This document shows, in pieces, positions 13,084 through 25,986 of a DNA stretch of 32,000 nt. Below the pieces are notes generated by a model. That model was not told where the DNA came from, searched no databases, and saw nothing but the letters and a program-made list of their open reading frames with translations. The position numbers and the translations under genes were made by a program. The stretch lies in assembly GCA_019056805.1 (NCBI GenBank), contig DXJG01000002.1, positions 343,103 through 375,102 of the forward strand. Reading direction: 5' to 3'. This DNA comes from Candidatus Baldrarchaeota archaeon. Lineage in GTDB: Archaea > Asgardarchaeota > Baldrarchaeia > Baldrarchaeales > DXJG01. How positions within the stretch are numbered: the first letter of the stretch is position 1; each line of letters opens with the position of its first letter.

Positions 13084-15102
13084 TTACATTTTTTCTAGCG
13101 GCTTTATACCAGCAGTAATCAAAGCATTTCTCAAAGTTATTTGAAACGCCTTAACGAGGGCCAACCTTGCTTTTCTTAATTCTTCATTCTCAACTTTCAA
13201 AACTGGCCTTTTTTCATAAAATTTACTGAAAAGAATTGCTAAATTATTCATGTAATTTGTCAAAATTTCAAGCCGCATTTCATCAACAATATTAATAATT
13301 TTAATTGGGAACTCCCCTATACTTTTTATTAATTCCCATTCAGCTTCGCCGGTCAAAAAATCATAATTTATGCTATCTGGATTAATTTCTATATTTTTAA
13401 CTTTTCTTAATATGCTACAAGCCCTTGCATAATTGTATTGAATGAATGGGCCACTATTTTCTTTCATGTCAAGAATCTTTTTCATGTCAAAAATTACAGG
13501 TTTTAGAGGGGTCACGTTAAGAAGAGCATATTTTATTGCCCCTACGCCAACTTCCTCTGCTATCTTCTCTTTCTCCTCTTCACTATACGGGGACTTCTTT
13601 AGTATTTCTTTTACGTTTTTAATAGCTTCTTCTAATACTTCATCTGCTGTTACATATTGTGCTCTTCTTCCACTCATTTTTCTGCCTACAAGTTGCACTA
13701 ATTCGTATTTAAAGTGAATAAAATTGTCAGCCCATTTATCATATCCCATAATTCTTAAAGCAATGTTTATTTGAAGTTGTGGTAAGGTTTGTTCAGCTCC
13801 TATAACATTATAGACACGATCAAACCGTGCATCTTCAAACTTCCAAACTGCATATGCTATATCTCTCGTAGGATAGAGAGTAGTTCCATCAGATCTTGTA
13901 AGAACGAGAGGTGGTATCTCAAAATCCTCGCTTATACCTAATTTCTCTTTTAAATTATGCTCAGAAATGTAGCGTTCTAAGTCTAAGATTTTGACATTAC
14001 TACTTTCACTTTCTCTATATACGTAACCTGAACTTTCTAATGCTTTCAAAACTTTCTCAACCTTACCGGACCACACAAGATCTGATTCCCAGTCAAAAGA
14101 GTCAAAATGAATACCAAAGCGATTTAAAGTCTCTTTTATACCATTTAAAGTAATGTTGCACATTTCTCTAACAAGATCTTTAATTTCAGGGTCAGCTTTT
14201 TCATATTTCTTGGTCATTTCGTCACAGTAACCCTTTAAATCTCTTATTTTGGAAGTTTCTTCCAGTAATTGCTCCGTTAATTTAGGAAATCTTTCCTTAA
14301 GACTTTTTAGTACATTATTCCACTCAACGATCTCTTTTTTTAATTCTTTAAATTCTTCACTGGCATTTTCATATTTTAATATGAAATTTAATTCTTTTTC
14401 AGAAATATAATACTTGTTTTCAGAATATTTCATTGTCTCGGGAACTATCTTCCACAGTTTCTCTTTTAATTCTTGAACAGTTAAGAAAGCATTCATTAAA
14501 GCATATATGATTCCCATCCATAAGTCAGGTTTCATATCAGGTTTTATACCCCTATTTTTTAGAAGACTGTAACCTATTGCTGTCATCACCGACTGTCTAC
14601 CCACATCATCAACATAAAAATGTCTTTTAACAATTCCACCAGCCATTTCTAACACGTTAGCAAATACATCCCCTATACACGAATTTCTAAGATTTCCAAT
14701 GTGTATTGGAGCTATAGGGTTTACTGAAGTATGTTCAACCATGATTTTTAACTTTTTTAAATAATTACTTTTACCATAATTTTCTGGATCTGCTAAAACG
14801 GTTTTCAATATTTTTTCAGCTGCAATTTTTCTATTGAGGAAAAAGTTAACATAACCTCCAACAATCTTAATATCTTCTATAAGAGGTAGCTCTAAATTTT
14901 TCAGTTCATCAGCTATTGATTTTGCAAGTAAAGAAGGATCCTTCCTAAGTTCTTTTGCGATCATGAAAGTTGGAAAGGAGAAGTCCCCAAGCTCAGGTGA
15001 GGGGGTCTTTAAAATTCTTACCTCTGCCTTTATATTCCGATTCTCTAAAACATTTTTTACGGCGGACTGAAGATTTGAAAGCAGATCACCCAGAGGATTC
15101 AT
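13084..15102 (-). CDS. argS: Arginyl-tRNA synthetase
   Basis: PSPELGDFS, GGYVNF, EHTSVNPIAPIHIGNLRN (HIGH), DGTTLYPTRDIAY, KMSGR (KMSKS equivalent), GPFIQYNYARACSIL, LKPLEKM-type end. Likely start ATG 15102 (GAGGGG SD); the ORF track extends to 15180. Confidence 0.97.
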   Translation of the reverse strand: MNPLGDLLSNLQSAVKNVLENRNIKAEVRILKTPSPELGDFSFPTFMIAKELRKDPSLLAKSIADELKNLELPLIEDIKIVGGYVNFFLNRKIAAEKILKTVLADPENYGKSNYLKKLKIMVEHTSVNPIAPIHIGNLRNSCIGDVFANVLEMAGGIVKRHFYVDDVGRQSVMTAIGYSLLKNRGIKPDMKPDLWMGIIYALMNAFLTVQELKEKLWKIVPETMKYSENKYYISEKELNFILKYENASEEFKELKKEIVEWNNVLKSLKERFPKLTEQLLEETSKIRDLKGYCDEMTKKYEKADPEIKDLVREMCNITLNGIKETLNRFGIHFDSFDWESDLVWSGKVEKVLKALESSGYVYRESESSNVKILDLERYISEHNLKEKLGISEDFEIPPLVLTRSDGTTLYPTRDIAYAVWKFEDARFDRVYNVIGAEQTLPQLQINIALRIMGYDKWADNFIHFKYELVQLVGRKMSGRRAQYVTADEVLEEAIKNVKEILKKSPYSEEEKEKIAEEVGVGAIKYALLNVTPLKPVIFDMKKILDMKENSGPFIQYNYARACSILRKVKNIEINPDSINYDFLTGEAEWELIKSIGEFPIKIINIVDEMRLEILTNYMNNLAILFSKFYEKRPVLKVENEELRKARLALVKAFQITLRNALITAGIKPLEKM

Positions 15103-15463
15103 AAGAGCCCCTCGTAAACATATTCTAAAATCACATAATTTAATATTTAATAAGGGTTTTGCATTTATTGACATATGCATATCGCTAAGTAAGGAGTTTT
15201 CTCGACATACTTTGTAAATTGTCTCACCTTTGGAAAATTGCTTTTATAAATTTAAAATATCTAAGTTTTACTAGATGAGATCCAAAAGTTATGTCAGTAA
15301 TAACCTAAAAACACGGGTCCATATTCATTTTACTTTTAAGGACAGACGATAAATTAGTAAATAAACATTAATATCTAGATTCTTCTCTAAAGTATAGGAG
15401 GTTGTTAAAATTCCAAGGGAAGGGTCAAGTATTAGCATATTCGTAAATATACGTAAAAGGCTT

Positions 15464-16034: not shown

Positions 16035-16301
16035 ATGATATCTAGTAACATTCTGTTTATAATAGGATATTTTCTCATCTTTCTCGGAATCATAATTATT
16101 TTTGTTACAATGTTCATGTTCCTCTTTAAATCAATTAAAGGTAAAACCGAGACAAAAGCCGGCGGGATAATATTTATTGGCCCTTTTCCCGTGATCTTTG
16201 GAACAGATATTGATATAGCGAAGTGGTTGGTAGTCATTGCACTAATAATTACGCTAATACTTCTTACTATAACTTTAATCCCCTTTATTACAGGAGGATG
16301 A
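16035..16301 (+). CDS. DUF131 family membrane protein
   Basis: TM - charged linker - GGIIFIGPFPVIFGTD - TM. Confidence 0.82.
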   Translation: MISSNILFIIGYFLIFLGIIIIFVTMFMFLFKSIKGKTETKAGGIIFIGPFPVIFGTDIDIAKWLVVIALIITLILLTITLIPFITGG

Positions 16302-16732
16302 GTATTTTGTCTATACTTTGTGAACTTTGCGGAAAGAGGCCAGCCAAATATGTTTGTCAAGAATGTGGAAGGAGAGTTTGTCAACGTTGTTTTAATGTTT
16401 ATTATGAACTCTGTAAAGATTGTTTGAAACCTGTTTTGGAAGAAATGGAGCAATACCATGTAAAAGAAGTTTTTGATATAAACTGGATGCTTAAATTTAT
16501 GTTAATAGGATTTACTATGATATTCCTTGGCATTTTCTTTGTGATTCTAGCTTCTCTAGCAGCTATACCCGAGACAAGCGGTGTTTTCTTTTTCTTTATA
16601 GGTCCTTTTCCAATAGTTTTCGGATATGGGCCTTATGCTCCCTATCTAGCTATTTCAAGCTTTTTCCTATTTATATTTCTTCTATTCTTCATTTACTGGT
16701 GGTATAAGAGAAAAAATACCGAAAAAATCTAA
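16298..16732 (+). CDS. Cys-rich zinc finger fused to a second DUF131-like membrane domain
   Basis: CELC..CQEC..VCQRC..CKDC followed by a TM and FIGPFPIVFG. ATG 16298 overlaps the upstream TGA (ATGA); the ORF track start at 16223 is probably too early. Confidence 0.72.
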   Translation: MSILSILCELCGKRPAKYVCQECGRRVCQRCFNVYYELCKDCLKPVLEEMEQYHVKEVFDINWMLKFMLIGFTMIFLGIFFVILASLAAIPETSGVFFFFIGPFPIVFGYGPYAPYLAISSFFLFIFLLFFIYWWYKRKNTEKI

Positions 16733-16853
16733 ATCTGCATGAATTTTCTTCTCTATTAGCATTATTTGATTTTATCATAAAAAATTATTTTTATATTGCT
16801 GTTGTCGGTTAACTTATAAGGTAAATATGTGAAGTTAGTGGATGTGAAAATTA

Positions 16854-19800
16854 ATGCTTGAAACGTTTAGAGAAATTATATTTCTTTCTAATGAGTTAAT
16901 TCAACAATTACCTGATCCTCGGGAGATTCGTGATAAATTTGAGGAATTTAATGACTGGGTTAATAAAATAAATGAGATAGAAAGAGAGTTTGCTTCTACT
17001 TCTAGATTTAATTTCAAAAAGAAAAGAGAGCTTAAGGAACGTCTCGAAAAAGAGATTGAAAAAGCTAAAAAAATGGCTAATGAACTTTTAGAAGCTAGTG
17101 AAAGACTACTTTTATCGCAATCAAGTATTGTAAGAGAGTTTGCTTCTAAACATTCTAACATTTGTGACAGGACGTTACTAGTAATTGTCCAAAAATTACC
17201 GGAACAAACATCTCTTGGCGACATTACAGTAAAAACAACACATGTTAAAAATATTCTTTCAACTCTTCGAAAAGCTGTTGCACAAATCAAAAACGACGTC
17301 TTAAAATGGGTAAATAACTTAGAAGCTGAAATAACCGAATCGGTTTTTATTATTCAACAAATATCAGAAAAACTAGGAGTACCGATCTCCGTAGAGAAAG
17401 ATAGTTTTATTGAAGAAATAAAAGAAACAAAAATTTTTCTTGAGCAGTTTTGGAAAATTGACGTATCTACAGTAGACAGTTTAATAAGTAAAGTTAAGAG
17501 AAGCTACGAATCATTAAGAAACGATATGAATACAAGTCTTTCAACCCTGATAACTTCTTTTAAAAATCAAATTTTACAATTAAGAGAAGATATACGACTA
17601 GTTGAAGATATCGTGGTCCCACCTTTTCCAATCATTCACACGAATCTTTCCGAAACAACCATGGGAAGTATTTCTATCAATTTATTGAGAACTCTCGCTA
17701 AGGACGTGGAAACTGTAAAACTTTTTGAAGATGATGTTAAAAGGAGACTTCTCAACAAAATAATTGTTTTAATGCGTAGAAATAAATCAAAAATGGAAGT
17801 ATTTAAGAAATACGTAGAAATAGATTCCTCAAAATTATCTCTTACATTAAAAGAGGCTCCGACGATAGACGAACCTTTAAATTCGTTACTAATACATCTT
17901 AAAGATCTCAAGGAGGAGGAAGAATATCTTAATAAAATGGAAAAGGCGGCAATCAATGGGTTAAAAAGTGATTTAAGAAGCAAACTAATGGAACTTTCTT
18001 CTAAAACGGAGGTAATTGTTGAAGAAGGGGTAAAACTTTCTCCAGAAATCACCAGAAAAATAAATGTTCTTTTATCTCAAATTGAAAATATTAAAGACGT
18101 GGATAGTGCCTTAAGTCTTGAAACAGAATATGTGAGGTTATTGGAAGGAATCAAGGATTCTATTAAAAGAGAATTTTTAAGTGAAAGAGGTAGAATCTTA
18201 GAAGTTGTGAGTGAGTTTTTAAGAGATGTAGAAGCTCCTGTGTTAAAGGGTCAAACTATAGAAGAACTTTTGCAAAATCTTCAAGAATTAAAAAGATGGA
18301 AAACAAAAGTAAAAAATCTACTAAAGGAAGAAGTTGTCAAGGCTATCGAAGAACTTGAGAGGGGGAATACTCTTTTAAAGGATACTTCTTGGGAAAATCC
18401 TGAGCTTTTTAAAATCCTTACTCAGATGAGAAATGAAATTAGAGCAGCAAATAAAATCGGAGAAATAGTAGAGATATTAAATAAGATTAATGACTTGAAA
18501 ACTGATGAGGAACAGAGACTTAAAGCAGCTCTTGAAACTATTAAAAAAGAATATATGGAAGTTGTAAAGGTTATAGAAGATCTTGTTGTTGACGTTTCTC
18601 CTTCAATACGTGCACCAATTCACGTAGATGTAAAAAACAAAACATACATTGAACTTACCGAGATTTTACCAGAACTGGGAGAAAAAATAAAACAGAGAGA
18701 TAAACTTGTAAAAGAAACACTTGAAAACTTTCTTTTAAAAATCAAAAATGAAGTTGAACGTATTCCATCACCGTATCGTGAGATTTTCGACCAAGTAATC
18801 AAAGAAATAGATAATAGTATTATCAATTTGAGAAAGGTAAATACTGTCTATGAGGTAAAGGAAGCCTTCAATTTAGCTATAAAAGAAATTAATGGTATGA
18901 TAAAAGAAAAATTCGCAGCATTAAAATCAAACTTAATACTGAAAACCAGGATGGCTTTCATAAAAACGAGAAATCCACCTGATGTAAGTGATGCGGTAGA
19001 AAAACTCAATGGAATAATTATAGAGCAATGGGAAATCTCTAGGGCAATATACGAAGTAAATAAAATATTTCAAGAAGAAATTCTAGGGAAATTACGAGAA
19101 TTTATTGAAAACGAAGCAAGAGATTACATTAACCTCTTAAACAAATTAAAGATGTACAATATTGAAGTAGAAGAATTTATAATAAAACTGGAAGAGGTAT
19201 TAGCAAAATTTTCATCAAAGAAGGAACTTGATATACAGGAAATTGGAGAATTAGGAAAAACGGTTAATGATGTAATAACTAGTTCAGCACTGAGACAAAC
19301 CTTCGCCAAATGGCTTAATTTAACCGTCGAAGCCTTAGAGAAAACTATAAACTATGTGTCTAAGTGGGTCCAAGTTGAAGAAGACTTCTACGAAGTTATA
19401 CCTACCCTTAAAAAACAATCAGAACTGCTCGATTCTCTAGAAATCGAAACTATTACAAAAATGATAGAACACACACATAAACTATGGGAAATAGCTAGAA
19501 GTTACCTTGAAGAAATCGAAAAACGTCGCGACATGATTTTTGAAGAAGAATTAAAGAAAATTCCATATCACGATTCAATAATGAAAATTTGGGATAAAAA
19601 TCGTAAAGAATTTGACAAAACCATTTTTCCCCTATCCAAATTATTTGAACTTAAAGAAGAAATATCAAAAGAGCAAACACCAAAAATATTAAAATTAATA
19701 GAAGAAAAAGAGAAACTCGAACAAGAATGGTTAGAAAAAGAAAAACAAATCTCTATCTGGCATAAATCAATAAAAATATTTTTAACGGGCATTAGTCCGA

Positions 19801-19925
19801 TGGACAACGAAGAGATTAAGGAAAGAAAACTGAAAGATGTCAAAGAAAAGATAAAAAGAATCTATAAAAGGAAAGATGTTCAAACATATCTAATTCTTGC
19901 AGCTCAAACATTATTAGGTGATTGA
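16854..19925 (+). CDS. 1023-aa all-alpha-helical/coiled-coil protein of unknown function
   Basis: Long open frame, E/K/L/I-rich amphipathic helices broken by Pro-containing loops; no Walker motif, TM segment or signal peptide seen. Confidence 0.87.
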   Translation: MLETFREIIFLSNELIQQLPDPREIRDKFEEFNDWVNKINEIEREFASTSRFNFKKKRELKERLEKEIEKAKKMANELLEASERLLLSQSSIVREFASKHSNICDRTLLVIVQKLPEQTSLGDITVKTTHVKNILSTLRKAVAQIKNDVLKWVNNLEAEITESVFIIQQISEKLGVPISVEKDSFIEEIKETKIFLEQFWKIDVSTVDSLISKVKRSYESLRNDMNTSLSTLITSFKNQILQLREDIRLVEDIVVPPFPIIHTNLSETTMGSISINLLRTLAKDVETVKLFEDDVKRRLLNKIIVLMRRNKSKMEVFKKYVEIDSSKLSLTLKEAPTIDEPLNSLLIHLKDLKEEEEYLNKMEKAAINGLKSDLRSKLMELSSKTEVIVEEGVKLSPEITRKINVLLSQIENIKDVDSALSLETEYVRLLEGIKDSIKREFLSERGRILEVVSEFLRDVEAPVLKGQTIEELLQNLQELKRWKTKVKNLLKEEVVKAIEELERGNTLLKDTSWENPELFKILTQMRNEIRAANKIGEIVEILNKINDLKTDEEQRLKAALETIKKEYMEVVKVIEDLVVDVSPSIRAPIHVDVKNKTYIELTEILPELGEKIKQRDKLVKETLENFLLKIKNEVERIPSPYREIFDQVIKEIDNSIINLRKVNTVYEVKEAFNLAIKEINGMIKEKFAALKSNLILKTRMAFIKTRNPPDVSDAVEKLNGIIIEQWEISRAIYEVNKIFQEEILGKLREFIENEARDYINLLNKLKMYNIEVEEFIIKLEEVLAKFSSKKELDIQEIGELGKTVNDVITSSALRQTFAKWLNLTVEALEKTINYVSKWVQVEEDFYEVIPTLKKQSELLDSLEIETITKMIEHTHKLWEIARSYLEEIEKRRDMIFEEELKKIPYHDSIMKIWDKNRKEFDKTIFPLSKLFELKEEISKEQTPKILKLIEEKEKLEQEWLEKEKQISIWHKSIKIFLTGISPMDNEEIKERKLKDVKEKIKRIYKRKDVQTYLILAAQTLLGD

Positions 19926-19927
19926 AT

Positions 19928-21301
19928 TTGGAAAGAGAAAGTGAAACTCAAACTTACACATCAAATGTATTTTTAATAGGCTTAGGGGAATGCGGAGGAA
20001 ATTTAGTCGGAGAATACATCAATAAAGAAAGAGAAGAAGGAAAACTGGAAAGAGTCACAGGATATCTAATTTTAAACACAAATCGTTATGACCTTGTAAA
20101 AACGAAAGAAAAATACAAAGTACCTCCAGAAAACATGTTAATGTTCGGAGATACTCCAATGGGTGTTGGCGGACGATTTATGGAAGCATACAACCTTATT
20201 GAAATATGGTGGGATGCAATAGCGGAGCAAATAAGAAACCTTGGTGGCGATGTTGCTAGTACCTTCATTATTTTAACATCAACGGGCGGTGGCACTGGTT
20301 GTGGCGCAACCCCGGCCTTAATTCGAAAAATTAGAGAAACTTTCGGTAGAAGTGGCCGTGTGTACATATATGTAATGGGAGTACTCCCATTTGAGGATCA
20401 AACAAGTGAAGCTCTTAACACTATATGGCTTCTTCACAGGCTTCTTCAAGAACCTGAAAAGGGAGAATCCGCCGATCTTGCCATACTTTTGTCTAATAGA
20501 ACTATGCTAAGAAGACGATTACAACATGAAAGATCAATGATAATGGATATTCTTGGTAGTCGTCTTGGAGTAGATATCACAGATGTAACACAATTAAATT
20601 CGATTGTTTTAGGTTCTGAACTTCCATTTAGCGCAAAAGTACTGGAACAAACTTTTGTAGATATTGTTAATCCATTGATCATACAAACACTTGTTAAATT
20701 GTTACAGCTTTCCACGTTTATGCCTGGAAAGAATATTTTTCCTGTCACAGATATGGCCGACATAGCTAATAAACTGGATACTATTTCTATTCCAGCTATT
20801 TTCACCGAAATACCTTACCAAACAACTATGGATGAACAAGGCAACATAGATATGGAGGGACTTGCGATGTTTCTCCAAGAGGTAGTTCATGTGGCTATTA
20901 AGTATTACAGTCTTGTAGATATTCAAGAACATCCTCAAGCATCAAGCGTATTATATCTCCTAAGCGGGCCTCGACATATCGTTGATGTACATTTGGATAG
21001 ACCAATAAAGACAGCATTAAATGAGTATATAGCGGAAGGTGCAGCAGTTACTCCAACATTTATTCAATATGATTCATGGGAAGTACCAATGGATCTTCTA
21101 ATACTGTTAGGACTTCCCAAGCTAGAGGAAATCCGAGATCTTGTAAGCGAAGCCGAAAAACTGATAAATCTTCATAGTGGCAGCAAAATTAAGGAGAGAT
21201 GGTTCTTAAAAAGCAAAGGCGTTTCGAAGGAGACGTTAGTTGAAGCTTTGAATGAGATAAAAGATTTATTTGACATTGGAGGAACTGCGGGTGAAGAGTA
21301 A
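19928..21301 (+). CDS. Tubulin/FtsZ-superfamily GTPase, divergent CetZ-like
   Basis: T1 GLGECGGN, T2 LNTNRYDL, T3 GVGG, signature TGGGTGCGATP (20285-20305), T5 VLPF, T6 ALNT, T7 VTDMADIANKL. GGTGA at 19917-19921 favours TTG 19928 over TTG 19922. Confidence 0.9.
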   Translation: MERESETQTYTSNVFLIGLGECGGNLVGEYINKEREEGKLERVTGYLILNTNRYDLVKTKEKYKVPPENMLMFGDTPMGVGGRFMEAYNLIEIWWDAIAEQIRNLGGDVASTFIILTSTGGGTGCGATPALIRKIRETFGRSGRVYIYVMGVLPFEDQTSEALNTIWLLHRLLQEPEKGESADLAILLSNRTMLRRRLQHERSMIMDILGSRLGVDITDVTQLNSIVLGSELPFSAKVLEQTFVDIVNPLIIQTLVKLLQLSTFMPGKNIFPVTDMADIANKLDTISIPAIFTEIPYQTTMDEQGNIDMEGLAMFLQEVVHVAIKYYSLVDIQEHPQASSVLYLLSGPRHIVDVHLDRPIKTALNEYIAEGAAVTPTFIQYDSWEVPMDLLILLGLPKLEEIRDLVSEAEKLINLHSGSKIKERWFLKSKGVSKETLVEALNEIKDLFDIGGTAGEE

Positions 21302-22187
21302 CAACGAGGAAGCTTCTGTAAACGATCTAAAAAATGATATTCAAAAATTAAGGGAAGAACTAAAAATAATAATAGAACTTCAAAAAATCTTCTTACAAAT
21401 ATTAAAACAAATAATAGCAAACTACCATGCAAATTTAGATATAAATTTGACTGAAAATTTAAAATCTTTCCTTGAATTGAATAAAAATGGCGACAAACGT
21501 CTTAAATCACTATTTCAAGAGGTTCAAAACTTCCTGAACGAAATTACTATCTTACAACACTTAGAATACGAACAGATACCATTAGAAAAAGAGGTTGATA
21601 AATGGAGAATAATATCATCCACAGAAAGGCTAATTGAAAAATTCTCTCCCTCTCATGACACTTTAATTCCAAATCTACTTCTCGAAACAATTAAAATTAT
21701 ACATCAATGCGAAATACCTGAAAAATGGAGAGAAAAAATAGTTAAAAAATTATCATTGGAAATTAGAAGTCTAATTCAAGAAATGTTTACAAAAGACCCA
21801 TATATGGGGCTTCTTAAAAAAATTAAAGATGGACAAATTAAACTTAGTGAAAAAGAACTCAAATCTGTTGAGAAAATTGTTGAAGAGAGAATTAAAACAC
21901 TTATTAACTTACTAGAAAATGCTAATAAAAGTTGGAAAGATAGCATTCTGTCTGCGCAATTTTCTCTAGAGGCTTTTAATTGGGGGACGGCAAAAACCGA
22001 GAAAAGATTCTTACAATTATTTTATCAAAAAGCTAAGAAGCTTATAGAAAGCGTTGGCGAGGAATCAAAGTTTGAAAACAAAATATTAAATTCTGAGGTA
22101 GCTATATTAATTTGTGAACTCGCCGATCAAATTATAAAGATACCAAAAACTCGAATGAAAATAGAGGAGATGAAAAGAAAAATATAA
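21291..22187 (+). CDS. Alpha-helical protein of unknown function with an N-terminal coiled coil
   Basis: GTG 21291 with GGAGG at 21278-21282, overlapping the GTPase stop by 11 nt; the ORF track uses TTG 21270. Confidence 0.8.
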   Translation: MKSNNEEASVNDLKNDIQKLREELKIIIELQKIFLQILKQIIANYHANLDINLTENLKSFLELNKNGDKRLKSLFQEVQNFLNEITILQHLEYEQIPLEKEVDKWRIISSTERLIEKFSPSHDTLIPNLLLETIKIIHQCEIPEKWREKIVKKLSLEIRSLIQEMFTKDPYMGLLKKIKDGQIKLSEKELKSVEKIVEERIKTLINLLENANKSWKDSILSAQFSLEAFNWGTAKTEKRFLQLFYQKAKKLIESVGEESKFENKILNSEVAILICELADQIIKIPKTRMKIEEMKRKI

Positions 22188-22610: not shown

Positions 22611-24266
22611 TCAAGTCCATTTTTCATTAATAGAGATTTTTTTGAAGAGCGGACTTGGTTTCTTAATTAAATGTCCCGAAGGAATTAGTAGTTCTTTTGC
22701 TGTAGTCCAATTCTCCTTATCGTGTACTGAACCGTCAAGGTTTAACATTTCCCAGATTTTCTCAGAGCTAAAGGGTATAAATGGTTCCATTAATATGGCT
22801 AAGCAACGAGTTAATTGACAGCATAAGTTTAGTGTGGTTTCAGCAATTTCTTTTTCGCTTTTCATTTTGTGCCACGGGGCTTTATCGTTGAGGTACTTGT
22901 TTCCTTTCCTTGCTAAATTCATAGCTTCACTAAGTGCATCCTTAAATTTAAACTTCTCTAAAAGTTCAGCAACGGTATCTGGAGTTCTCTGAATACTTGC
23001 TATAAGTTCTTTGTCAAGCTCGTCAAGTTCATGTCTTTCAGGAACTTTTCCATCAAACTGTTTATAGATAAATACAAGGGTTCTATGCACAAAGTTACCT
23101 AAGATATCAACTAATTCGTTATTGATTCTCGCTTGGAAATCGTCCCAAGTAAAGCTTGAATCTTTTGTCTCCGGTCTTATAGATATCAGATAATATCTCC
23201 AATAATCAACTGGAAATTTTTCTAACGCTTCATCAGCCCAGACTCCCCATCTTCTACTCTTAGAAAACGGTTTTCCACAAAAGAGTAAGAATTCTGTGGA
23301 AGCAACGTTCCAAGGCAAAATATATTTTTCTTCACTTGCCATGAGTAGTGCTGGCAAAATTAATACGTGGAACGGTATGTTATCTTTGGCTATAAAGTAC
23401 ACACTCTTTGTCTGAGGATCAAACCAATATTTTTTCCACTTATCGGGTTTTCCTACATTTTTTGCCCATTCTATTGTTGCAGATATATACCCTAGAACAG
23501 CTTCCATCCAAACATAAATCGTCTTTTTCTCAGCACCTGGAAATGGTGCTGATATCCCCCACTCATTGTCCCTAGTAAGTGATCTAGGTTTTAACCCCTC
23601 ATTTAATAGGTTTAAGCTAAAGTTTCTAGCATTTTCTGGTAATTGCTTATTACTCTCTACATATTTCTTTAATTCCTCTTCAAATTTCGATAAGTCAAAA
23701 AACCAATGAGTAGTCTTTTTAATCTCTGGAGTAGAACCACATATCGCGCAACGCGGAGATTCTAATTCTATAGGATCTAAAAGTCTCCCGCAATTTTCAC
23801 ATTGGTCCCCTCTAGCATTTTCATAATTGCAATAAGGACAAACACCTTCAACAAACCTATCCGGTAAAAATCTTTGACATTTAGGGCAGTAGAGCATTTC
23901 AATTTCTTTTGAAAATATGTAGCCATTTTCATAGACTTTCCTATAAAAGTTTTGAACAAATTCCTTGTGAACAGGACTTTCTGTTCGTGTATAATTGTCA
24001 AAAGATATTCCCCATTCATCAAAAATCTTCTTAACTTTCTGATGCATCTCATCAGTGAGTTCACGTGGCGACATCCCTCTTTTTATCGCTTCAACTTCAA
24101 TTGGAGTACCATGTTCGTCAGAACCAGAGACAAACACTACTTCATCTCCTCTAAGCCTAAGATATCTTGCAAAAACGTCCGCAGATAATACTGAACCTAT
24201 CATGGTTCCTAAATGAGGTACATAGTTTATATATGGCCAAGCTGAACATACAAGCCATCTACGCAT
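22611..24266 (-). CDS. metG: Methionyl-tRNA synthetase, copy A (SAWPY/HLGT/AKDN type)
   Basis: SAWPYINYVPHLGT, SDEHG, four CxxC knuckle motifs, YVWMEA, AKDNIPFH, FSKS, GNFVHR, KAPW. ATG 24266 has GGAGGT 7 nt upstream; the ORF track uses GTG 24284. Confidence 0.96.
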   Translation of the reverse strand: MRRWLVCSAWPYINYVPHLGTMIGSVLSADVFARYLRLRGDEVVFVSGSDEHGTPIEVEAIKRGMSPRELTDEMHQKVKKIFDEWGISFDNYTRTESPVHKEFVQNFYRKVYENGYIFSKEIEMLYCPKCQRFLPDRFVEGVCPYCNYENARGDQCENCGRLLDPIELESPRCAICGSTPEIKKTTHWFFDLSKFEEELKKYVESNKQLPENARNFSLNLLNEGLKPRSLTRDNEWGISAPFPGAEKKTIYVWMEAVLGYISATIEWAKNVGKPDKWKKYWFDPQTKSVYFIAKDNIPFHVLILPALLMASEEKYILPWNVASTEFLLFCGKPFSKSRRWGVWADEALEKFPVDYWRYYLISIRPETKDSSFTWDDFQARINNELVDILGNFVHRTLVFIYKQFDGKVPERHELDELDKELIASIQRTPDTVAELLEKFKFKDALSEAMNLARKGNKYLNDKAPWHKMKSEKEIAETTLNLCCQLTRCLAILMEPFIPFSSEKIWEMLNLDGSVHDKENWTTAKELLIPSGHLIKKPSPLFKKISINEKWT

Positions 24267-24312
24267 CTTTCTTACCTCCGACACGTAAAAATCTATTTAT
24301 CAGCGTGTTATT

Positions 24313-25986
24313 TTACTTGTTTTCAGTTTTCATTGATTCTAATATTTCTTCTATTTTTTCATCCGCAATTTTCTGAAATATTGGTTCAGGTTTTTTAATT
24401 AAATGACCTGGTGGAATTTCAACTTCAGTTAAATAACTCCAGCTAAATTTTTCTATATTTAGATATTCCAAAACTTTTTTGGCTGAGGAGGGTATAAAGG
24501 GAACTAGCAATATAGCTATAGTTTTTACAAGTTGAGCAGCAACAAACAATGTTGTCTTAGCATCATTCACATTGCTTTTAACCGTTTTCCAAGGTTCTTT
24601 GAGATTTAAATATTTATTTCCTTCTCTAGCCAAATTTATAATGTTTTCAAGGGCTAATTTTAACCTATATGTTCCCATAAGTTTTTCTATCTTTTCTATA
24701 TCTCTCTTGATAAGTTCTATGATTCTTTTGTCTTCTTCTTTATATTCAGATGGTTCTGGAACTTTACCTTGAAAATATCTGTAAATAAAGGTTAAAACTC
24801 GATGTATAAAATTTCCAATGATCCCAACGAGATCGTTATTAATTCTATCTTTAAATTCTTTCCAACTCCAGTCGGTATCATCTAAAGACAGAGGAGAAGC
24901 AAGTATTAAATAAAATCTTGCGTAATCTGCAGGGAAATGTTTAAGGAAGTCTTCAACCGCAATATACCATCCTCTACTCTTTGAAAACTTCTTTTTTTCT
25001 AATGTGAGAAATCCTCGAGTTGGTATAGCTGAAGGAAGGTTAAAGCCTAGGTTTGTACCCTTAAGCATTGCAGGCCAAAACAGATAGTGGTGGTAAATGA
25101 TATCCTTTCCGATATGGTGAATAATTTTTGTTTCTGGATTCTTCCACCATCTTTCCCAATTATCGCCGTGATCTTTACACCATTTCATGGTGGAGGCAAT
25201 ATATCCAATTGGAGCATCAAACCACACATAAACCTTTTTTCCCTTAGAGTCTTCATAGGGAAGTTCAAATCCCCAGTAGTCTTTTTCTCTTGTGATGTCC
25301 CAGTCTTTTAGTCCCTCCTCTATCCATCTAAGTACGTAATTCACAACTTGGGATTGCATTTCCTTATTGTTTTTTAACCAGTTTTTAAGGAAATCTGAAA
25401 ACGCTGAAAGTTTAAAAATGAAATGAGAACTTTCTTTAGGAATAGGAGTAGAGCCGCACAATGCGCATTTAGGGTCTAAAATTTCTCCAAATTCAAACGT
25501 TGTACCACACTTCTCACAATAATCGCTATACTGATCTTGGGCTCCACATCTCGGACATGTACCCTTTACATAACGGTCTGGTAGATAACGTTGACAGTTG
25601 GGACAATAATGCAGTTTCACATAGTCTTTGTATATGTAGCCATTTTCTCTCAGCGATTTCAAAAATAAATGAGTTAACTCTTCATTTTCGGGGCTATGTG
25701 TTCTGTAAAAAACGTCGAATTCGATGTCTAGTGATTTGAAAATTTTCTTGTCAAGTTCATGGTAATTCTTTACGAATTCTTCTACGTTTTTTCCAGCTTT
25801 TTCGGCTGCGAGCTGAATTGGGGTACCATGTTCATCTGTAGCACAAATATAGAGAGTTTCAACACCTTTTAAACGGTAAAAACGAGCAAGAACATCAGCA
25901 GGCAAATAGGTACTTTTCATATGACCTAGATGAGGTATTCCATTAGCATAGGGTAAAGCTGCTGTTATTAACACCCTTTTGAACAT
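24313..25986 (-). CDS. metG: Methionyl-tRNA synthetase, copy B (ALPY/HLGH/GKDI type)
   Basis: AALPYANGIPHLGH, TDEHG, four CxxC, YVWFDAPIGY, GKDIIYHH, KFSKS, GNFIHR, KEPW; GGAGG SD. Confidence 0.96.
   Translation of the reverse strand: MFKRVLITAALPYANGIPHLGHMKSTYLPADVLARFYRLKGVETLYICATDEHGTPIQLAAEKAGKNVEEFVKNYHELDKKIFKSLDIEFDVFYRTHSPENEELTHLFLKSLRENGYIYKDYVKLHYCPNCQRYLPDRYVKGTCPRCGAQDQYSDYCEKCGTTFEFGEILDPKCALCGSTPIPKESSHFIFKLSAFSDFLKNWLKNNKEMQSQVVNYVLRWIEEGLKDWDITREKDYWGFELPYEDSKGKKVYVWFDAPIGYIASTMKWCKDHGDNWERWWKNPETKIIHHIGKDIIYHHYLFWPAMLKGTNLGFNLPSAIPTRGFLTLEKKKFSKSRGWYIAVEDFLKHFPADYARFYLILASPLSLDDTDWSWKEFKDRINNDLVGIIGNFIHRVLTFIYRYFQGKVPEPSEYKEEDKRIIELIKRDIEKIEKLMGTYRLKLALENIINLAREGNKYLNLKEPWKTVKSNVNDAKTTLFVAAQLVKTIAILLVPFIPSSAKKVLEYLNIEKFSWSYLTEVEIPPGHLIKKPEPIFQKIADEKIEEILESMKTENK

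Follow-up and report, generated by a model that had tools for sequence, protein, structure and literature searches.

In a 32,000-nucleotide stretch from a Candidatus Baldrarchaeota archaeon (contig DXJG01000002.1, positions 343,103 to 375,102; hereafter the window, G+C about 34%), a gene for a tubulin-superfamily GTPase, TUB, lies between genes for a giant helical protein, UP, and a small helical protein, DN. This locus raises the question of which tubulin-type family TUB belongs to, and whether it works together with its two neighbors. An earlier note, made from the letters of the DNA, had described TUB as probably an active, polymerizing GTPase of a separate subfamily. In this study, we found that TUB belongs, as a representative of Baldrarchaeia, to Asg.Tub, a clade confined to Asgard archaea and distinct from canonical CetZ, FtsZ, and the true tubulins, and that its gene is the middle one of a conserved three-gene operon. 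We lean toward the reading that TUB forms a GTP-driven filament with its own scaffold (UP) and adaptor (DN). The fuller proposal, that UP, Asg.Tub, and DN make up a self-contained Asgard cytoskeleton of three components, with a scaffold, a side-face adaptor, and an insert that docks or gates the giant partner, is more tentative and is put forward as a possibility. Asg.Tub itself was named in 2023; the clade-wide insert and C-terminal helices, the three-gene operon, the single phyletic pattern, and the prediction of a DN interface are added by the present analysis.

A conserved operon around a tubulin-superfamily GTPase

Gene order was surveyed in the window, three homolog loci, and 20 more diverse Asgard loci, using iterated profile searches on six-frame open reading frames (ORFs). 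In 24/24 loci, UP (659-1400 aa) directly preceded TUB on its strand, and in 22/24, DN (293-392 aa) directly followed it. In the first three homolog loci, a large protein without a Pfam match preceded TUB in each case, and a protein of 358-392 aa followed it in two. Clustering of all ORFs showed no other gene family common to the operon loci across lineages. In the window, the UP stop codon overlaps TTG 19922, the first of two candidate TUB starts, both of which are TTG; the second, at 19928, is favored because a Shine-Dalgarno-like GGTGA lies ahead of it at 19917-19921. DN, whose likely start lies 11 nt ahead of the TUB end, runs over the stop codon of TUB (21299-21301). The two loci that have no DN, L006 and L039, hold a second UP-TUB copy in Hod-type genomes, which also keep a full UP-TUB-DN set (genome G066, for example, carries both L039 and L040). 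Hodarchaeales-type genomes have two UP-TUB pairs (second copies at L006:4569-9338 and L039:7992-12752) and one DN gene per genome.

The distribution of the three genes was examined in 400 Asgard genomes. TUB, UP, and DN were present in 126, 129, and 123 of them, respectively, in the same taxonomic families, and each was found in 32 of the 90 high-quality genomes. Given in the same order, the three genes occurred in 3, 3, and 3 of 3 genomes of family f1, in 21, 22, and 20 of 22 in f9, in 15, 16, and 16 of 19 in f12, in 5, 5, and 5 of 5 in f28, and in 76, 77, and 74 of 89 in the last three families together. Outside these families, none of the three was seen in any family represented by at least two genomes, one of which comprised 135. 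The carriers are Baldrarchaeota, Thorarchaeota, Hermodarchaeota, Borrarchaeota/Sifarchaeum, Asgardarchaeum, Hodarchaeota, and Heimdall LC-3. Across lineages of the Thor, Hermod, Baldr, Borr/Sif, and Hod types, the system is close to universal. Since related genomes are not independent samples, the matching patterns are reported without a statistical claim. The earlier note had proposed checking whether a long insertion in TUB co-occurs with the flanking helical genes; it does so, both at the loci and in the phyletic patterns of UP and DN.

TUB matched the Pfam Tubulin family PF00091 with an E-value of 1.9e-15 (58.1 bits; curated cut-off 33). Its T4 signature (GGGTGCG), T1 loop (GxGECGxN), and acidic T7 loop (TDxAD) fall in invariant columns, and the model shows the two-domain fold joined by helix H7, as expected of the superfamily. 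Column invariance was read from alignment A1, which holds 24 TUB-family sequences from several Asgard classes, and TUB residues were counted from start 19928. In addition to the loops listed in Table 1, the T5-region columns P154, F155, Q158, S160, and E161, N190 of T6, and N248 and P249 at the start of H7 were invariant. Because the motifs occupy invariant columns in 24 sequences spread over several Asgard classes, they are not chance matches. All motifs quoted in the earlier note (GECG, GVGG, GGGTGCG, VTDMAD, and the C-terminal helices) were located in the TUB translation or model. Its description of an active, polymerizing GTPase draws its support from the conservation of the nucleotide-contacting loops and of D275 and D278, which suggests such an activity; this acidic pair is expected to activate GTP hydrolysis in the neighboring subunit. 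Baldrarchaeia members of the family have about 8 extra residues in the C-terminal domain (about 299-311 of TUB, window 20822-20860) that are missing in the other lineages of A1.

Table 1. Positions in the window of the operon genes, their motifs, and predicted features
Feature	Position	Strand	Remarks
TATA-like AT-rich element, candidate promoter	16790..16797	+	in the 121-nt gap upstream of UP; read from sequence
UP, 1023-aa all-helical orphan, first operon gene	16854..19925	+	stop TGA 19923-19925
TUB, 457-aa tubulin-superfamily GTPase of the Asg.Tub clade	19928..21301	+	alternative start TTG 19922
T1 loop G18-N25 (GLGECGGN)	19979..20002	+	G18, G20, E21, G23, N25 invariant; C22 nearly (A1)
H2, H2-S3 loop, and H3 (residues 53-105), predicted DN-binding face	20084..20242	+	best complex run
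T3 loop G79-F84 (GVGGRF)	20162..20179	+	G79, G81, G82, F84 invariant (A1)
T4 signature G120-G126 (GGGTGCG)	20285..20305	+	invariant; C125 nearly, with one Ser (A1)
H6 and family-specific insert, residues 191-246	20498..20665	+	model and alignment
T7 loop V273-D278 (VTDMAD)	20744..20761	+	D275, A277, D278 invariant (A1)
Three C-terminal helices, residues 400-447 (400-415, 420-430, 434-447), equivalents of tubulin H11-H12	21125..21268	+	AF2 model
DN, helical orphan of about 298-305 aa, third operon gene	21291..22187	+	GTG 21291 after GGAGG 21278-21282
Conserved DN loop 236-246, consensus W-G-G-P-x-L-E-K-R	21975..22007	+	G239, E244, R246 invariant

Upstream of the operon, the TATA-like element is a possible archaeal promoter, judged by its letters. 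A 169-aa ORF just before the operon (16223-16732, forward strand) gave sub-threshold B-box and HIT zinc-finger matches and a weak DUF131 match, and it is not kept beside the operon in other lineages. The arginyl-tRNA synthetase (ArgRS) gene at 13084-15180 on the reverse strand also flanks the operon, and two full-length methionyl-tRNA synthetase (MetRS) genes stand in tandem directly downstream of it (22611-25986, reverse strand).

Partner proteins and the predicted contacts of TUB

UP homologs were detected by BLASTP in Thor (4e-29), in Heimdall LC-3 (5e-9, C-terminus only), and in the Hod copies (4e-10). UP gave no Pfam match, no PDB sequence match, and no informative Atlas cluster; the archaeal hypothetical-protein cluster that was its sole protein-atlas match is probably UP's own family. 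Hits to apolipoprotein A-I, designed helical proteins, and single-member Pfam families in PDB-profile and Pfam searches were rejected as low-complexity helical noise. The best conserved part of UP is its C-terminal region of about 140 aa, in which W969, H970, Y1012, and L1013 are invariant. About 150 residues of the window protein (61-210, window 17034-17483) are missing in most of the other 23 homologs, and in Heimdall LC-3 and Hod, UP has extra length at other places (1140-1400 aa); how long UP is therefore depends on the lineage, and the C-terminal domain stays fixed. Segments 275-399 and 413-518 align to each other with an hhalign probability of 86%, a weak hint that UP may be built of repeated helical modules. 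No membrane segment was found in UP or TUB, the maximum 19-residue Kyte-Doolittle hydropathy never exceeding 1.6 in any member; among the DN proteins, at least one had a maximum of 2.1.

The longest DN ORF starts at TTG 21270, and DN residues are numbered from there. Its homologs were found by BLASTP at 2e-21 and 2e-4. The AF2 model of DN consists of long N-terminal helices (3-100, block-mean pLDDT 55-81), a low-confidence linker at about 100-113, and a compact helical C-terminal domain (110-305, block-mean pLDDT 92-98, mostly 96-98). DN had no Pfam family, no PDB sequence match, and no usable protein-atlas match, and profile and Pfam searches returned low-complexity helical noise. Fold searches with the whole model found no convincing structural neighbor: Foldseek against the PDB gave nothing below an E-value of 0.3, ESM Atlas matches had a TM below 0.5, and in the wide VIA-align search the best Z of 7.3 covered the long N-terminal helices only.

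One controlled complex prediction of TUB with DN was made in three runs, for which the family alignment of each protein served as input. Scores of 0.63, 0.00, and 0.67 were obtained (median 0.63), compared to 0.00 for the best control. Of 80 solved complexes, 58 reached this mark, as did 2 of 110 mismatched pairs, counts that hold only roughly here because our own alignments were used for TUB and DN. The runs agreed in at least 0% of contacts, and the pLDDT of the partner was at least 73. In the best run, TUB residues 53, 56-57, 60, 67-77, 94, 96-97, 100-101, and 104-105 faced DN residues 175-177, 238-243, 245-246, 248-249, 252, 302-303, and 305. The DN side, which centers on the conserved loop 236-246, holds 4 of the 7 invariant DN columns (P177, G239, R246, and K302), and its mean column identity was 0.68 versus 0.50 for the rest of the domain. 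The model supports, without proving, binding of DN to the H2/H2-S3/H3 side face of TUB. In microtubules, the H2-S3 loop and H3 take the M-loop of the neighboring protofilament, and DN would therefore occupy a lateral-type face. A small independent hint in favor of this interface, read from sequence, comes from G74 within it. In the Hod second-copy clade, whose two examined loci (L006 and L039) have no DN, Ser takes its place in 5/5 sequences, and the other 19 aligned sequences all have Gly. The consensus of the second copies differs at 50% of interface positions versus 32% of other N-domain positions, which with 22 positions is a trend only.

The insertion that the earlier note had counted as 56 residues between LLSN and VN was found exactly so: 56 residues separate N190 from V247-N248. 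From one conserved Asn to the other, the spacing is 57 residues in TUB and 49-59 in 14 family members. Representatives of canonical CetZ (15 sequences) have 15-20 residues there, and a further 21 non-canonical relatives have 16-45 (L-INS-i alignment). These differences mark the H6-H7 insert as a shared derived feature of the Asg.Tub clade. The insert is real, about 32-42 residues long, and common to the whole Asg.Tub family. In the AF2 model, H6 (190-200) is followed by extra helices at 202-213 and 221-228 and a long H7 (236-262), with lower pLDDT in the insert region (block means 57-73). The first half of the insert is conserved, with M193, L194, and R196 invariant and D216 nearly so in A1, and its middle is variable both in length and in sequence. 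The longitudinal tip of beta-tubulin carries a pocket, made up of H6, the H6-H7 loop, T5, and H7, that is targeted by vinca-site ligands and CPAP (PMC9171608). By homology with that region, the insert should lie beside the nucleotide on the longitudinal subunit-subunit interface and not on the lateral face. The predicted DN interface, at residues 53-105, leaves the insert outside, and the suggestion in the earlier note that the insertion is a candidate surface for lateral contacts or partner binding was not confirmed.

In the system we propose, TUB would bind GTP and assemble head to tail into protofilaments, each subunit completing the active site of its neighbor with its T7 acidic pair. The insert would reshape or gate the contact between subunits, or bind the giant UP, and these roles appear likelier than lateral contacts because homology places it longitudinally, beside the nucleotide. 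Besides the insert, the second feature that defines the clade is a tubulin-like pair of C-terminal surface helices, found where FtsZ has its linker and tail. DN would dock onto the GTPase domain at its H2/H2-S3/H3 side face through the W-G-G-P-x-L-E-K-R loop, and the long N-terminal helices of DN would stay free to dimerize or to bind UP. UP would be a filament-associated scaffold of repeated helical modules. Together, the three would amount to a third cytoskeleton of the tubulin type in some Asgard lineages, one that is soluble, chromosomal, and inherited vertically.

The best surviving alternative, which we consider unlikely, takes TUB to be a non-polymerizing GTPase switch whose insert caps the longitudinal face. 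TUB would then stay bound to DN and UP in a stable heterocomplex and might serve, for instance, as an adaptor regulated by nucleotide. The longitudinal position that homology assigns to the insert (PMC9171608), the prediction of DN on the side of the GTPase domain, and the lack of an FtsZ-type tail for membrane anchors are all compatible with such a switch. However, D275 and D278 are invariant across the family. In the tubulin superfamily, this T7 acidic pair acts only on the nucleotide of the adjoining subunit, and at least head-to-tail dimerization is therefore expected.

Several points weigh against the three-component filament that we prefer. GTP binding, hydrolysis, and polymerization of Asg.Tub are all deduced from residue conservation. 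The longitudinal placement of the insert comes from tubulin homology, and an insert at that place could also block polymerization. One of the three TUB-DN runs scored 0.00 and the runs share no contacts. Since the alignment is itself an input to the predictor, an interface rich in conserved residues does not count as independent evidence. Synteny is the sole source of the role given to UP. No fused or longer forms of TUB were found, and so there is no fusion to prove a physical linkage, although this negative is weak evidence.

Place of TUB in the tubulin superfamily

A word-index search yielded 64 TUB homologs, nearly all of about 440-480 aa, and all those with informative names were from Asgard archaea (Baldr-, Thor-, Hod-, Heimdall-, and "Loki"-labeled metagenome-assembled genomes). 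Identity of the full-length homologs to TUB ranged from 38% to 88%, with 88% in Baldr and 38-48% in most others. In a profile search of 1.84 billion cluster representatives, two full-length proteins scored above 600 bits, the next scored 167, and only 279 proteins had an E-value below 1e-3. Because the scores fall from above 600 to 167 bits, the family is tight and well separated.

One homolog, P0045, is OLS26264.1 (41% identity and 96% coverage, E-value 7.5e-100), which identified the family. OLS26264.1, OLS30664.1, KXH77455.1, and PWI48967.1 appear in the alignment and search output of Asg.Tub, a group defined from these four sequences and described only phylogenetically (Santana-Molina, del Saz-Navarro, and Devos 2023, PMC9871819). 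In that report, the position of Asg.Tub was unstable between CetZ and the tubulins, with CetZ-like indels, and its genome context consisted of "unknown genes", mostly with coiled-coil regions. Asgard archaea were also listed among the lineages with tubulins and "non-canonical" tubulin-superfamily proteins (Brown and Duggin 2023). The "CetZ-related Asgard archaeal clade" of a 2026 tubulin preprint (10.64898/2026.02.15.705738), where it serves as an outgroup, is probably Asg.Tub. In the searched text of PMC9871819 and of the preprint, we found no insert, fixed operon, matching phyletic patterns, or partner interface. Homology to a founding sequence, monophyly apart from CetZ, and the long H6-H7 segment with the UP-TUB-DN operon all place TUB in Asg.Tub, the segment and the operon being criteria defined in the present analysis and not taken from the literature.

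The separate subfamily proposed in the earlier note therefore stands as a clade outside canonical CetZ, but it is not new, since it was already described as Asg.Tub with OLS26264.1 as a founding member. That note had also named placement inside a known CetZ clade sharing the motifs and the insertion as grounds for giving the idea up. All members of the already named Asg.Tub share both, so novelty at the family level falls; placement in canonical CetZ was not observed. TUB is also not an FtsZ: it scored 23 bits with TIGR00065 against a cut-off of 295, T7 has no Asn, and the C-terminus consists of ordered helices. A scan of TUB and its nearest relatives against NCBIfam gave an FtsZ match only, which was sub-threshold, and thus no label for CetZ.

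Another explanation, which we regard as improbable, is that TUB is a divergent CetZ ortholog doing the CetZ job in cell shape or motility, with its neighbors being incidental. Three CetZ entries were the best matches in a sequence search of solved structures (4b46 at 1.4e-6, 3zid, and 4b45, up to 7e-4), ahead of eukaryotic tubulins at about 1e-3. CetZ structures have GVGA or GVGG at the T3 position in the sequence alignments, like the GVGG of TUB, and canonical CetZ likewise has a T7 of the form D-x-x-D/E without Asn (L-INS-i alignment). The literature also calls the clade CetZ-like or CetZ-related. However, the canonical CetZ clade, for which the Thermococcales CetZs set the boundary (Brown and Duggin 2023), does not include TUB in our own tree or in the published ones. 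Our tree, a quick IQ-TREE run of 86 rows under LG+C20 without tubulin references, grouped the TUB family, including Thor, Hod, and Heimdall members, in one clade with 97% SH-aLRT support, outside a CetZ clade supported at 99%. Members of that CetZ clade carry T1 GxGQAGGK, and one of them, P0080, matches H. volcanii CetZ1 at 3e-113; the TUB family has GECG(G/S)N instead. In the Figure 6 tree of PMC9871819, Asg.Tub has a stem of 2.0 substitutions/site, is weakly sister to Halo.Tub (support 62), and belongs neither to the CetZ clade nor to the artubulin-plus-tubulin clade. The H6-H7 spacing and the extra tubulin-like C-terminal helices also separate TUB from CetZ. Finally, neighbors that are kept at 24/24 (UP) and 22/24 (DN) loci over several Asgard lineages do not look incidental, and the genomic contexts of CetZ and of the CetZ-like Asg.Tub are unrelated (PMC9871819).

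The AF2 model of TUB (pLDDT 86.6, pTM 0.89) was compared with solved structures. With VIA-align, CetZ 3zid (Z 35.6, rmsd 2.8, 326 aligned, model range ending at 422) and OdinTubulin 7evl (Z 35.1, rmsd 2.8, 365 aligned, model range 12-456) were tied, and BtubA/B, eukaryotic tubulins, and AtubA/B followed at Z 33-34. Alignments to CetZ ended at residues 414-422; the span to OdinTubulin is longer because C-terminal helices 400-447 match tubulin H11-H12. Columns L393, G395, P397, E401, H416, W425, F426, K430, and G431 of this region are invariant in A1. TUB ends shortly beyond the helices, and no FtsZ-type linker or tail peptide follows them.

These structural results bear on a further explanation, that TUB is a bona fide tubulin relative building tubules like OdinTubulin or AtubA/B, which we judge highly improbable. 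OdinTubulin was the top match in Foldseek (E-value 8.4e-19), with gamma-tubulin and CetZ close behind, its VIA-align tie with CetZ came with more aligned residues, and the Cys in T1 recalls the GQCG of tubulin. Against this, identity to tubulins in the structural alignments was 13-18%, the published trees and indels put Asg.Tub outside the artubulin-plus-tubulin group (PMC9871819), and the preprint uses the probable Asg.Tub clade as an outgroup. An A/B paralog pair is also lacking: the source genome (1.92 Mb, 91% complete) has three PF00091 genes, namely TUB and two strongly FtsZ-like genes.

A DNA-segregation or mobile-element system of the TubZ/PhuZ type, which a tubulin-like gene in a small dedicated operon and the weak match of a distant non-canonical relative (P0100) to TubZ might bring to mind, is scarcely credible, as no relatives were found in 2.9 million viral contigs, the operon is chromosomal among housekeeping genes (ArgRS and two MetRS), the TUB-family sequences group by Asgard lineage in our tree, and no DNA-binding partner is present, with no recognizable DNA-binding domain in UP or DN in Pfam and PDB profile searches. 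PADLOC returned one negligible match and no defense assignment, and a mobile-element or defense origin of the operon is unlikely.

The nearest outlier relative, P0067 (L057:8001-10149), is a 457-aa protein with a T1 of GEGG and an H6-H7 spacing of 28. It lies downstream of SMC-ScpA and pyrimidine-synthesis genes, and its locus has no UP gene. The overlapping 262-aa protein that comes after it has a predicted N-terminal transmembrane helix; it was rejected as a DN homolog, since it matched the C-terminal part of the DN profile at only 9 bits. P0067 and this neighbor may be a membrane-anchored cousin of the Asg.Tub system.

Comparison with known systems

Asg.Tub has so far been only a long branch or an outgroup in trees, and its distribution, the operon, and the predicted interface make it a testable system. 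If the proposal is correct, UP/Asg.Tub/DN would add to FtsZ and the true Asgard tubulins a third filament system of the tubulin type, with a prokaryotic set of dedicated filament-associated proteins. If UP and DN bind filaments, they would represent new families of accessory proteins for tubulin-type filaments.

The Asg.Tub sequences of PMC9871819 belong to the same family as TUB and have the motifs, insert, and operon in common with it; the window adds the Baldrarchaeia member. The CetZ proteins (Haloferax volcanii CetZ1/CetZ2 and Methanosaeta CetZ; 4b46, 4b45, and 3zid) resemble TUB in fold (Z 34-36), in T3 GVGx, and in T7 D-x-x-D/E. However, TUB has GECG in T1 where CetZ has GQAG, its H6-H7 segment is about 35 residues longer, and it has two further C-terminal helices, dedicated operon partners, and a place outside the CetZ clade.

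OdinTubulin, AtubA/B, BtubA/B, and the eukaryotic tubulins (7evl, 9f6t, and 5o09) share the fold with TUB over nearly its full length (Z 33-35, 356-368 aligned), together with C-terminal helices matching H11-H12 and the Cys in T1. They differ from TUB by the low identity of 13-18% and in T3 and T7, which in TUB are not of the tubulin type. TUB also has no heterodimer partner, its insert sits where tubulin has the short H6-H7 loop, and its clade lies outside the tubulin group in published trees.

BtubA/B with BtubC, TubZ with TubR and TubY, and FtsZ with EzrA, ZapA, or SepF are likewise tubulin-type filaments with dedicated helical accessory proteins, and the proposed association of TUB with UP and DN would be similar to these. 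However, UP and DN have no detectable relation in sequence or fold to BtubC, TubR, TubY, EzrA, ZapA, or SepF. The UP/DN system also differs from the BtubA/B, TubZ, and FtsZ systems in having no detected membrane anchor or DNA-binding module.

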